DNA from: Abditibacteriaceae bacterium
GTDB lineage: Bacteria > Armatimonadota > Abditibacteriia > Abditibacteriales > Abditibacteriaceae
NCBI GenBank assembly: GCA_031372065.1
Contig: JANMKN010000009.1
Coordinates: forward strand, 1 to 15,738
Direction: 5' to 3'
DNA length: 15,738 nt
Shown here: positions 1 through 3,641 of the stretch, piece by piece
How positions within the stretch are numbered: the stretch's first letter is position 1
Layout: each line of letters begins with the position of its first letter
Made by a program: the position numbers and the translations under genes
Notes under the pieces: model-generated
Told to the model about the DNA's origin: nothing
The model's database searches: none
The model's input: only the letters and a program-made list of their open reading frames with translations

Positions 1-75
1 CGCCAAGCCGATGACTTTGCCTTCGGGCCAGCCGCGCTGTTTGTGATTTTTTCCTGTTATGATTTTTTCGTCCAT
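1..75 (-). CDS. 5' end of a gene running off the window; probable RtcB-family RNA ligase (tentative)
   Basis: ATG at 75-73, frame open to the window edge: MDEKIITGKNHKQRGWPEGKVIGLA. From memory this resembles the N-terminal extension of Deinococcus/Bacteroidetes-type RtcB (xGKxxxxxGx(P)EGKxxGLA). Only 25 aa are visible and the RBS is weak (AGG at 82-80). Confidence 0.45.
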   Translation of the reverse strand, partial: MDEKIITGKNHKQRGWPEGKVIGLA

Positions 76-87
76 AAAACCTAAATC

Positions 88-130
88 AAAAAAAAAAAGG
101 CGGGGGTGTCTAAAAAGCGACACCCGCGCC
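88..130 (-). terminator. Intrinsic terminator (attenuator) upstream of the partial gene
   Basis: On the minus strand GGCGCGGGTGTC (130-119), an 8-nt loop and GACACCCCCGCC (110-99) give 11/12 bp, followed by 11 U (98-88). It ends 12 nt before the ATG at 75. Confidence 0.85.
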
Positions 131-133
131 GGA

Positions 134-149
134 ACAGCTATAAAGCTGT
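134..149. other. Small hairpin between the leader stop codon and the terminator
   Basis: Perfect 6-bp inverted repeat ACAGCT-ataa-AGCTGT. Confidence 0.4.
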
Positions 150-153
150 CAGG

Positions 154-300
154 TCATAGCCCGAAAATGGTATGATTTACACGATTTGGGGCCAGTTGGC
201 AGGTTTGGTGTCGCGCTCTTTGCGTTGAACGCCGAGCGAGCCGATGATTTATGCAATAAATGCAAGAGTGCGTCTGGTTGTCAGTCCGATGAGTTTTCAT
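154..300 (-). CDS. Putative leader peptide (uORF), 48 aa
   Basis: AGAGGAGGTT (315-306) then CGCGC then ATG at 300, with TGA at 156-154. Translation: MKTHRTDNQTHSCIYCINHRLARRSTQRARHQTCQLAPNRVNHTIFGL. It lies between the promoter and the terminator and is not in the supplied ORF track. Confidence 0.7.
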   Translation of the reverse strand: MKTHRTDNQTHSCIYCINHRLARRSTQRARHQTCQLAPNRVNHTIFGL

Positions 301-338
301 GCGCGAACCTCCTCTGAATTGGGCCGTCTCGTGCGGCG

Positions 339-381
339 AATTGAAACTATACCGTGCGGTTTCAATTTTGTCAACAAAATT
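339..381. promoter_or_regulatory. Two palindromes overlapping the promoter (candidate operators)
   Basis: AATTGAAAC-N11-GTTTCAATT (339-367, perfect 9 bp) and AATTTTG-tcaa-CAAAATT (364-381, perfect 7 bp, around the -35 box). Confidence 0.5.
346..374 (-). promoter_or_regulatory. Sigma70-type promoter driving the leader and the downstream gene
   Basis: -35 TTGACA (374-369), 17-bp spacer, -10 TATAGT (351-346). Predicted start near 340, about 25 nt before the leader SD. Confidence 0.8.
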
Positions 382-400
382 TATAACAGAACTTTGTGAA

Positions 401-449
401 GTTGAGAGTTTTGAGTTAGGAGTTGGCGCAAAACCCCTAACTCAAAACT
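401..449. repeat. Heptamer-derived inverted repeat upstream of the CARF gene
   Basis: Degenerate 7-mers GTTGAGA/GTTTTGA/GTTAGGA. Perfect 14-bp inverted repeat AGTTTTGAGTTAGG (407-420) / CCTAACTCAAAACT (436-449), ending 6 nt before the ATG at 456. Confidence 0.75.
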
Positions 450-455
450 GTTTTT

Positions 456-890
456 ATGATTGTGCTTTTTTCGCCGTTGGGTTTGTCCTACGGCACGCTT
501 TATTCGGCAATTCTTTCGGTGCGCCCGCAACGCGTGGTGGTGATTACCTCGCCGCAGGCGGCCAATCTGCTGCATTCGGCGGTGGACGCGGCGCGCTTTT
601 TTTATAGCGGATTCGCTGTGGAAACGCACATTTTGAGTGACCCCTTTGCGGGCTTTAGTGAAGGTCGCGCCTTGGCGCCCGACTTGGCCCTGCGCGCTGG
701 TGAAATCAATGTGGTCAATCTCACTGGCGGCACCACTGTTTTGCAGGATTGCGCCCGTTCCATTGCCGATATTTTGCGCGAGGCCAACAAAAATGTGCAG
801 GAAGTTGCCGTTGTGGATGGCCGCGATAGCGATGAACAGGCACGTCAGCCACTGGTGTTGCGCCATCTGGTTGAAGTGCCTGCTCTTTGA
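456..890 (+). CDS. Stand-alone CARF (CRISPR-associated Rossmann fold)-like protein, possible ring nuclease or nucleotide sensor
   Basis: 144 aa. It has the N-terminal strand-loop LFSPLGLSYG (CARF motif I), a second strand RVVVITS, and VVNLTGGTT matching the CARF [D/N]xTGG motif II. No effector or HTH domain is attached. Confidence 0.7.
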   Translation: MIVLFSPLGLSYGTLYSAILSVRPQRVVVITSPQAANLLHSAVDAARFFYSGFAVETHILSDPFAGFSEGRALAPDLALRAGEINVVNLTGGTTVLQDCARSIADILREANKNVQEVAVVDGRDSDEQARQPLVLRHLVEVPAL

Positions 891-1055: not shown

Positions 1056-3641
1056 ATGTGGCAACGATTTACCGAACGGGCGCGGCGGGTGATTTTGCTG
1101 GGGCAGGAAGAAGCCGGCAAGATGAATTCCAGCCACGTCGGGACGGAGCATTTGTTATTGGGTCTGGTGCGAGAAAACGAAGGCGTGGCCGCGCAGGTGC
1201 TCACCAAAATGGGCGTTTCGCTGCAACGCGTTCGCGAAGAGATCGAAGACGAAATTGATCACACCGACGAACCAGCCGGCAGTGAACCGAAACTCACGCC
1301 GCGCGCCAAGCGCGTGCTGGAACTGGCCGCTGATGAAGCGCGACGGATGCGACACAATTACATCGGCACCGAGCATCTGCTTTTGGCATTGCTGCGCGAA
1401 AAAGATGGCGTCGCCGCCAATGTTTTGCGCAAAATGGGCCTGAATTTGGAAAAAGCGCGCCATCAAGTGATGGAATATCTCGGCCCCGAATCGCCGCAGG
1501 CTGAAAAAGCGGGCAGTGATCGGGAAAAAGAGCGCGAACGCGGCACTGGCGGGCCGGGTGGACGCGGCGCACGTTCGCAAACACCCGCGCTTGACCAGTT
1601 TGGTCGCGACATTAATCAATTGGCGCTCGACGGCAAACTTGATCCGGTCATTGGAAGACAAGCGCAAATTGAGCGCACCATCCAGATTCTTTGCCGCCGC
1701 ACCAAAAACAATCCCGTTTTGGTCGGCGAACCCGGTGTCGGCAAAACTGCCATTGTCGAAGGCCTCGCGCAGCGCATCGTGGCGCATGATGTGCCCGAAC
1801 CGCTGATTGACAAAAAAATCATCGCGCTTGACCTTGCTACCGTTGTGGCGGGCACCAAATATCGCGGCGAATTTGAAGAGCGCATGAAGCGTATCATGCA
1901 CGAAATTCGCAACAGCAACGGCAAAATTATCGTGTTCATTGACGAATTGCACACGATTATCGGCGCTGGTGCTGCCGAAGGCGCCATTGATGCCTCGAAT
2001 ATGCTGAAACCGGCCTTGGCGCGCGGCGAAATGCGTTGCATCGGCGCGACCACGCTCGATGAATATCGCAAATACCTCGAAAAATCCGGCGCGCTCGAAC
2101 GGCGTTTTCAGATGGTTTTGGTGCCCGAACCAAATGCCGAAGATGCGCTTGAAATCATGAAGGGCCTGCGCCCGCGCTATGAAGAATTTCATGGCGTGAA
2201 AATTACCGACGAAGCGTTGAACGAAGCCGTAGATTTGTCGCAGCGTTACATCAATTCGCGCCAATTGCCCGACAAAGCCATTGACCTCATTGACGAAGCC
2301 GGAAGCCGCGTGAAACTGCGCGTCGCTTTGCCGCCGCGCGAACTGCGCGAGTTGCAAAAGCAACTGGACGAACTCAATTTGGAAAAAGAAGCCGCCGTCA
2401 ACAACGACGAATACGAAAAAGCCGCCGAACTGCGTGACCGCGCGCAAGAACTCGAAAAGAAGCTCGAAAACGCGCAGGAAACGTGGCAAAGCCAGCGCAG
2501 CGAAACCGACGAGCAACCAACTGTCACCGAAGATGACATCGCGCAAATCGTCAGCGATTGGACGGGCGTGCCGGTGCGCCGCTTGACCGAAGCCGAAACC
2601 GCCAAACTGCTGCGCATGGAAGACGAGTTGCACCATCGCGTCATCGGTCAGGAAGAAGCGATCAAAATCGTTTCCAAAGCCGTGCGGCGTGGGCGCGCGG
2701 GCCTCAAAGACCCGAAACGTCCCACCGGCGTGTTCATGTTCGTTGGCCCGACCGGTGTCGGCAAAACCGAACTGGCGCGCGCTTTGGCCGAGTTTATGTT
2801 CGACGACGAATCGGCTCTCATTCGCCTCGACATGAGTGAGTATTCGGAACACTTCAACGTGTCACGGATGCTGGGTTCACCTCCCGGTTATGTCGGCTAC
2901 GATGAAGGCGGGCAATTGACCGAATCGGTGCGGCGCCGTCCGTATTCGATTGTGCTGTTTGACGAAATCGAAAAGGCGCACCCGGAGATTTTCAATACGC
3001 TGTTGCAAATCTTCGACGATGGCCGCCTGACCGATGCGCAGGGCCGCATTGTGGACTTCAAAAACACGATTATCATCATGACGAGCAACGTCGGCACATC
3101 GGGCCTCGATAAAAGCCTTGGTTTGCGCGACCTCTCCACCAGCGGCCAAAGTGCTGATGCGGCTTACAACACCATGAAAAGTCGCGTGATGGAAGCGTAT
3201 TCGCGGATGTTCCGTCCCGAATTCCGCAACCGTTTGGACGAGGTGATTGTGTTCCATCACCTGACGCACGCGGAAATTTTGCAGATCGTGGATTTGATGT
3301 CGAAGCGTGTGGAAAACGAATTGGCGCGGCGCGAAATGAAGTTGGAATTTCTGCAAGGCGCCAAAGAGTTGCTCGCCAAAGAAGGCTACGACCGGCAGTT
3401 CGGTGCGCGTCCGCTCCGTCGCGCCGTGCAGCGCCTCATCGAAGACCCTCTCGCCGAGCGCATCCTGATGGGCGACTTTAAAGCGGGCGATACCATTTAC
3501 GTGGACGCCCAAAACGGCGAAACCGTCTTCACCACCGAGTTGCCGACGCCGCTCGATGAAGTTCTCGAACCCATCGGCGAACCCGCAGGTGATGTGTCGG
3601 ACGACGACGAAGAACGCCTCTCGGCCATGATGGACGAGTAA
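1056..3641 (+). CDS. clpC: ATP-dependent Clp protease ATP-binding subunit ClpC
   Basis: 861 aa, RBS AAGGAG at 1043-1048. Two Clp_N repeats ([18 protein letters not shown]), Walker A GEPGVGKT and GPTGVGKT, Walker B VFIDE and VLFDE, a short UVR-type middle domain ([11 protein letters not shown]), pore loops KYRG and GYVG, and an LGL ClpP-docking-like loop. Confidence 0.96.

Follow-up and report, generated by a model that had tools for sequence, protein, structure and literature searches.

The window, by which we mean the whole stretch of DNA analysed (15,738 nucleotides), is an entire contig (G000:C405) of an assembly that is 94% complete. An rtcB gene, truncated by the contig start, reads leftward from position 75; a small CARF gene and clpC read in the opposite direction. 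The features of the locus are listed in Table 1.

Table 1. Features at the left end of the window (positions of the window; strand as + or -).
Feature	Position	Strand	Remarks
rtcB RNA ligase, 5' end, 25 codons	1..75	-	remainder on contig C398 (L001 1153-2583)
Intrinsic-terminator-like hairpin with U-tract	88..130	-	stem 130-99, -22 kcal/mol; in 26/27 family genomes
Leader uORF, 48 codons	154..300	-	stop 23 nt before hairpin; peptide unconserved across genera
Shine-Dalgarno sequence GGAGG of the uORF	308..312	-	perfect GGAGG in 22/26 leaders
Sigma70-like promoter of rtcB, TTGACA-17-TATAGT, 11/12	346..374	-	similar site in 25/26 leaders
Imperfect palindromic repeat	394..455	.	short matches on 8 other contigs; outside the conserved layout
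Stand-alone CARF protein, 144 aa, single domain	456..890	+	ORF, AlphaFold2 model, structure searches, motif alignment
clpC (Clp_N, two AAA+ modules, UVR)	1056..3641	+	co-directional with CARF; apparent third member of an ancestral block

A sequence-only reading of this DNA had called the left gene RtcB from a stub of 25 aa, for which Pfam gave nothing useful. The call is borne out by contig C398 of the same assembly, which matches window 1-133 at 91% and carries a complete 476-aa rtcB (PF01139, E 2.4e-81, profile positions 1-423 of 426); this copy is the sole RtcB match in the assembly. About 12 positions differ between the first ~130 nt of the window and C398 (L001:2509-2649), and one public contig of 912 nt shows full identity with window 1-34 as well as with C398 1631-2542. 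The rtcB 5' region exists in at least three variants, two of them within this assembly and another on a public contig, and the assembly is therefore probably broken there; the differences are either strain variation or an error at the contig end. Public contigs cover window 127-399, 184-1085 and 338-972 with zero differences, and the C398 rtcB and the CARF region of the window are both found on public contigs of the same three runs, at similar depth and with nearly no differences. In a relative (locus L002) the divergent rtcB, the CARF gene and clpC lie in this order on a single contig. The one RNA run covered only clpC.

The protein encoded at 456-890 had been described as a single-domain CARF protein, and the fold was borne out by structure searches with an AlphaFold2 model (117-sequence alignment, pLDDT 93.4). 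In Foldseek the top match was a Thermus Csm6 CARF (E 4e-7), and all 29 listed rows were CARF proteins. VIA-align gave CARF proteins at ranks 1-22 (Z 15.3-8.9), the first non-CARF row having a Z of 8.1; the match to the Crn1 enzyme Sso2081 had a Z of 13.7, with an rmsd of 2.5 over 138 aligned residues. A language-model atlas search also led to CARF clusters. The model thus confirms the prediction of a bare CARF domain with a Rossmann-like fold. Neither Pfam nor NCBIfam had a useful match for this protein; a PDB sequence search with a profile of the clade described below had no significant match, while a wider profile matched Can2 and Can1.

Both CARF motifs are present as the sequence-only reading had claimed. 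Motif I reads SPLGLSYG, with G9-L10-S11-Y12 encoded at 480-491, and motif II reads NLTGGTT (N88-L-T-G-G-T-T94, at 717-737); the C-terminus contains D121-x-R123...Q128-x-R130-x-P132. The serine or threonine that the superfamily has after strand 1 is there (S11). After strand 4 the superfamily pattern is given as [DN]x[ST]xxx[RK] (PMC4012209), and the K/R of this pattern is missing in the window protein and in 93 fused relatives. At the start of the gene, 19 of 20 orthologues (window 456 and 19 others) are without an SD-like motif upstream. Three orthologues have a -10-like hexamer 5-6 nt 5' of the start, which together with the missing SD suggests that the CARF mRNA may be leaderless.

Next we analyzed the relationship of the protein to known CARF families. 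PADLOC gave a full-length match to the C-terminal CARF of CARF2--CARF_HEPN_CARF (PDLC01838-01840), with an E of 4.6e-31 over residues 3-141 for PDLC01839 and 1e-8 for the next model. By profile similarity the protein belongs with the extra C-terminal CARF of the Csx1-type CARF-HEPN-CARF effectors. Searching 1.84 billion cluster representatives with a profile gave 439 matches; among the best 150 of these (50% clusters), 92 are C-terminal domains in proteins of at least 500 aa and 22 are apparently short stand-alone proteins. The large relatives that were scanned are Csx1-type or CYTH-CARF7-HD proteins; two of the latter (P0241 and P0270) exceed 1000 aa and carry the CARF relative at the C-terminus. 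Near relatives outside the clade also include N-terminal CARF fusions to an NYN RNase, an HD_4 domain or a Card1-like nuclease (P0272, 555 aa; L057:3-893; P0130). No CARF relatives were found on viral contigs. The parent-family signature is LGxSPG...GGTT...DRR...Q..P, and when the clade alignment was compared with that of the wider set by hhalign, the probability was 100, the window protein being part of both alignments.

The genomic setting of these relatives was examined in a metagenome scan with the wider profile, in which the best 80 of 111 loci were kept (68 distinct domains) and neighbours were labeled from one representative per cluster. Of these best 80, 70 loci lie outside the clade: 49 are fused and 21 apparently stand-alone, some of them ended by the contig. 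A type III gene is nearby in 39 of the 70 and any cas or CARF gene or array in 57; rtcB is nearby in none. The 10 kept clade loci from the same scan have cas genes in 0/10, rtcB in 4/10 and clpC in 2/10. In type III loci the parent domain occurs at the C-terminus of Csx1 or as a separate gene of ~150 aa after it (P0217, P0156, P0165; L060-L139). PADLOC has Csx3, Csx16 and Csx20 fusions in the same C-terminal slot of Csx1, and these three are described as confirmed ring nucleases (PMC12409355; PMC12669027 supplementary table 2). Because the slot also takes these enzymes, the parent CARF family is by analogy likely to be a ring nuclease, and from its sequence it looks like an uncharacterised family of this kind. 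In titles and abstract openings we met no earlier description of the clade; the 2020 classification behind the PADLOC label may name the parent domain, and PMC11229360, as far as its text was available, deals with a different protein, Csm6-2. The parent fusion architecture is already catalogued under the PADLOC label, and the clade is a CRISPR-free form of a known kind of CARF.

The clade itself is almost confined to one family. The gene is present, always as a single copy, in 20 of 27 family genomes, and the named close homologues belong to Abditibacteriaceae / Abditibacteriota. In the phylum outside the family, 274 genomes gave one match, a CARF-HD fusion, and a wider search of 401 genomes gave six further weak partial matches. 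The rtcB loci of the seven family genomes without the gene showed no CARF remnant. A careful tree indicated that the clade is monophyletic with a support of 97/98; it contained 13 of the 20 family sequences, leaving out the other 7 and most fused relatives, and the large tree was computed in quick mode. Its nearest neighbours in the tree, at a weaker support of 84/86, are stand-alone forms and N-terminal fusions to NYN, HD and Card1-like domains.

Frames are intact in 20/20 carriers (one ended by its contig, one with an altered C-terminus), and near-full-length homologues number more than 150. Of 190 pairs, 172 were unsaturated, and over these the median dN/dS is 0.17 and the maximum 0.31. The median identity is 68% for CARF and 68% for RtcB, with a Mantel rho of 0.52 (18 genomes). 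The clade CARF is under purifying selection and is conserved as much as RtcB.

The change that marks the clade lies in motif I. The sequence-only reading had taken TGGTT in motif II as a hint of a different ligand; GGTT is, however, the norm in the CRISPR-linked relatives (78 of the 93 fused ones, with K/R at that position in none), and is therefore not special to this locus. At position 11, S or T occurs in 95% of the 93 fused relatives versus 32 of 117 clade members (A58, S29, N26, T3, V1), and position 12, which is mostly P outside the clade, is aromatic in all 117 (Y 116, F 1). The clade-specific change in sequence is G-L-S-P to G-L-[A/S/N]-Y: the serine is relaxed and a tyrosine is fixed beside it. 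The window protein and its nearest kin retain S11 and have DGR in place of DRR. Core residues kept in the clade are G9, G13, S32, N88, GGT, Q97, D121, R123, Q128 and P132; R47, F48, H50, H58, R71 and R130 are conserved surface residues specific to the clade.

Homologues recur beside rtcB. The two genes are directly divergent in 14 of the 20 carriers, with a gap of 307-584 bp and in 4 of 6 genera, albeit nine of the 14 cases are from one genus. In three carriers CARF lies 2.9-10.2 kb from rtcB, and in three more the genes are on separate contigs, two of these clearly unlinked. A clpC or Clp_N gene follows CARF immediately in 8/20 and is a few genes away in 2 more; the ancestral block appears to have been a leftward rtcB followed by rightward CARF, an optional Clp_N gene and clpC. 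A gene encoding only Clp_N often lies between CARF and clpC (L028:16781-17497; L030:10610-11641; L050; L053; L054). The downstream neighbour of rtcB changes every few genomes, and CARF-rtcB is the best-kept adjacency within these loci. CARF stayed by rtcB while clpC moved off in five genomes (G084, G059, G161, G197 and G143), which amount to about two events in two g4 lineages, and partings of CARF from rtcB, in g2, g5 and g6 genomes, are about equal in number. In several g4 genomes the CARF start is only ~17-45 nt from the rtcB -35 box, and promoter overlap could by itself be enough to keep the two genes together. The gene link is thus real and not decisive; a functional link between CARF and RtcB is one that we infer.

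The rtcB gene has an elaborate leader of its own. The sequence-only reading had proposed a sigma70 promoter with an attenuator; promoter (374-346) and hairpin (130-99) are both present on the minus strand, and the claim had missed the uORF (300-154) between them. The order promoter, Shine-Dalgarno sequence, uORF and terminator precedes rtcB in 26 of 27 family genomes (window 88-374; L028-L056, L002), counts that come from related and hence not independent genomes; the exception is G188, where rtcB lies within an operon. The uORFs have 30-48 codons, with conserved length and stop position and an unconserved peptide. Their stop falls 15-36 nt ahead of the stem in 24/26 leaders; the two remaining frames give 0/26 and 4/26. 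The hairpins are GC-rich (-20 to -29 kcal/mol), each with a U-tract, and two types can be told apart, with GGTGTC/GACACC and GAAGGC/GCCTTC arms. Complementarity of the uORF to the 5' arm exceeded that of shuffles in only 3/26 leaders, so that no antiterminator helix is demonstrated across the 26; Rfam had no match at gathering level, and its weak matches were taken as chance. An inverted repeat, AATTGAAAC...GTTTCAATT, at window 339-366 overlaps the -10 box of rtcB, and relatives keep only half of it.

This leader belongs to a known kind. In PA5471.1-armZ of Pseudomonas aeruginosa and in whiB7 of mycobacteria, a uORF and then a terminator are described before an RtcB-like or translation-stress gene (PMC12057347; 10.1101/2023.06.02.543512). 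All of them share a uORF that has an SD sequence and stops shortly ahead of an intrinsic terminator, whereas the rtcB uORF differs in being longer and in its unconserved peptide. The leader is the same in all seven genomes without CARF; since it looks self-contained and its layout does not depend on the presence of the gene, CARF is not needed as a regulator of rtcB. From the leader sequences, rtcB is probably induced through its own leader RNA and not by the CARF protein.

We also searched for the CRISPR, cyclase and RNA-repair genes with which a CARF protein might work. As had been claimed, the ORFs of the window showed neither a cas gene nor an array. In the genome of the window, only Cas3 and an array of ~8 repeats on contig C183 (L140) were found, with no type III genes, mCpol, rtcA or TROVE; C183 also has a WYL gene and recombinase, replication and mobile-element genes. 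In the family, cas10 and RAMP genes each occur in 2/27 genomes, the SMODS cyclase in 0/27 and RtcR (PF06956) in 0/27, all absence counts being limited by incomplete genomes. The absence of CBASS rests on SMODS and is to that extent incomplete, since a search for the CD-NTase PF21654 gave 0/27 and no match in any control genome either. Ten more genomes gave weak PF22335 matches, at best E 6e-7 and for the most part to the C-terminal half; these genomes have no RAMP genes, and we took the matches for probable GGDEF-type domains and not for Cas10. Thus 18 of the 20 CARF carriers are without cas10, among them three genomes assembled in 1-2 contigs each (G033, G059, G084). In the two genomes with cas10 the CARF gene adjoins rtcB, outside the cas locus. 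The two type III loci of the family (L058, L059) lie among ParB and mobile-element-like genes and have NE0113-type CARF genes of their own. The proposal of CRISPR independence thus holds for most carriers, which have neither type III CRISPR nor a detected CBASS cyclase. The rtcA gene is not a neighbour: it occurs in 7/27 family genomes, each time on another contig.

Comparison with three known systems places the protein further. With the C-terminal CARF of CARF-HEPN-CARF proteins it shares the GGTT of motif II and the D-R-R...Q...P tail, whereas the clade is stand-alone, in CRISPR-free loci beside rtcB and clpC, vertically inherited, and has variable-Y in place of S-P in motif I. Like the Crn1 enzymes Sso2081 and Sis0455 (PDB 7YGH, 7Z55) it is a small CARF without a toxic effector, but it has 144 instead of ~178 aa and no type III locus. 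Crn1 enzymes are reported to need R105/K106 of motif II (PMC10018336, PMC9638899), which the window protein lacks, having GGTT instead; R123 and R130 might substitute for the catalytic Lys/Arg. Motif I of Crn1, G9-T10-S11, is in register with residues 9-11 here, GLS in the window and GL[A/S/N] in the clade. In Sso2081 this motif positions the 2'-OH and is proposed as a mark of degrading CARFs (PMC10018336), while S11 is described as dispensable in the ring nuclease Sis0455 (PMC9638899); decay of the serine in the clade is therefore no proof that cA4 cleavage was lost.

The third system is enterobacterial RtcR, in which a CARF-type domain is likewise encoded divergently beside rtcB (rtcR-rtcBA). 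The RtcR family is described as mostly lacking the basic residue of motif II (PMC4012209), as the window protein does. RtcR differs, however, in having AAA+ and HTH domains and in its CARF family, the protein here having no PF06956 match; rtcB here has a sigma70-like promoter and leader, and rtcA is unlinked. The analogy to rtcR/rtcB drawn in the sequence-only reading is not upheld, given 0/27 for PF06956 and a leader that is indifferent to CARF.

A bare CARF under lasting selection with no cyclase at hand needs another ligand or partner. The fact that CARF is held as tightly as RtcB while 18/20 carriers are without Cas10 makes it probable that this ligand or partner lies outside cyclic-oligoadenylate signalling, and the clade is likely to serve a purpose outside CRISPR now, perhaps by binding broken RNA ends. 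The reading we favour, albeit tentatively and at less than an even chance, is that a domesticated and likely dimeric CARF binds, and perhaps slowly trims, short 2',3'-cyclic-phosphate (>p) RNAs beside RtcB, and does not control rtcB transcription. A CRISPR-ancillary CARF, probably of ring-nuclease type, would have landed between rtcB and clpC in the ancestor of the family. Its dependence on cA4 would then have been lost, as the missing cyclase and the motif I change suggest, and the new ligand would be >p RNA; ring-nuclease products (A2>p) and the RtcR ligand serve as models for this, the RtcR CARF being reported to bind >p-ended tRNA halves (PMC7790460). The dimer, assumed from the family, may buffer the pool of damaged RNA that RtcB would repair, and ribosome stalling in the uORF may keep the leader terminator from forming and so induce rtcB. 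The clade protein has no output domain, which counts against this reading. A bolder form, quite unlikely in our estimate, is that a ring-nuclease-type CARF was domesticated independently of RtcR: the remodelled bare dimer would capture >p RNA ends and hand them to, or gate, RtcB, while a ribosome-sensing leader would set RtcB levels. If true, CARF-RtcB coupling would have arisen a second time, here at a step after transcription.

Several other explanations have to be weighed against this. The CARF may have acquired a function that has nothing to do with RtcB; it could, for instance, be a nucleotide-gated partner of ClpC or of the downstream Clp_N protein, with the rtcB adjacency being an ancestral order held by overlapping promoters. 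The co-directional clpC or Clp_N gene, directly downstream or within a few genes in ten carriers, would fit such a job, as would G237, where divergent rtcB and clpC are adjacent and CARF is absent, the many clade-specific surface residues and the self-contained regulation of rtcB. However, clpC is distant in the five genomes named above and also in G019, with CARF equally conserved, and a promoter-like site at 899-927 separates CARF from clpC in the window; we consider this explanation not very likely. It is unlikely, too, that the CARF has kept the role of a cA4 ring nuclease or sponge and is retained on the chromosome to switch off type III systems, which would arrive and be lost with mobile DNA. 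That idea draws on the relatives that sit in the Csx1 C-terminal slot, as Csx3, Csx16 and Csx20 do, or in a separate gene after a Csx1-type gene, on the register of motif I with that of Crn1 (PMC10018336), on the core residues from G9 to P132 that are kept and on the two family genomes with cas10. Against it, the gene is as strongly selected as rtcB although most carriers lack cas10, motif II has no R/K, S11 is relaxed, and ring-nuclease activity is only putative even for the CRISPR-linked relatives.

That the protein is a minimal counterpart of RtcR, sensing RNA ends and turning rtcB on, for example via the leader, we judge very unlikely: the divergent geometry, the lack of RtcR in 27/27 genomes and the reported binding of E. 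coli RtcB to the RtcR CARF (PMC9650030) would suit it, whereas the protein has no DNA-binding or ATPase domain and belongs to another CARF family, and the leader layout is identical in the seven genomes without CARF. Hardly credible is the alternative that the sequence-only reading itself had raised, a decaying remnant of a Csx1-type fusion. Absence of the gene from 7/27 genomes, the NYN, HD and Card1-like fusions among the nearest outside relatives and the 19/20 starts without an SD could be taken that way, and the idea is already largely refuted by the dN/dS of 0.17, with intact frames in every carrier and the large number of near-full-length homologues against it as well.

A CARF protein that stands alone is commonly interpreted as an off-switch of CRISPR. 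As a small soluble protein with CRISPR-linked relatives that differ at motif I, the clade CARF comes with a clean natural control, so that non-CRISPR CARF ligands are directly testable; the same comparison bears on a possible ring-nuclease activity, so far uncharacterised, of the parent domain, the extra CARF at the C-terminus of Csx1 fusions.

In five family genomes (L040, L042, L043, L051, L053) the RtcB frames have ~700-810 codons and are split near profile position 50, a pattern in the sequences that is consistent with inteins.
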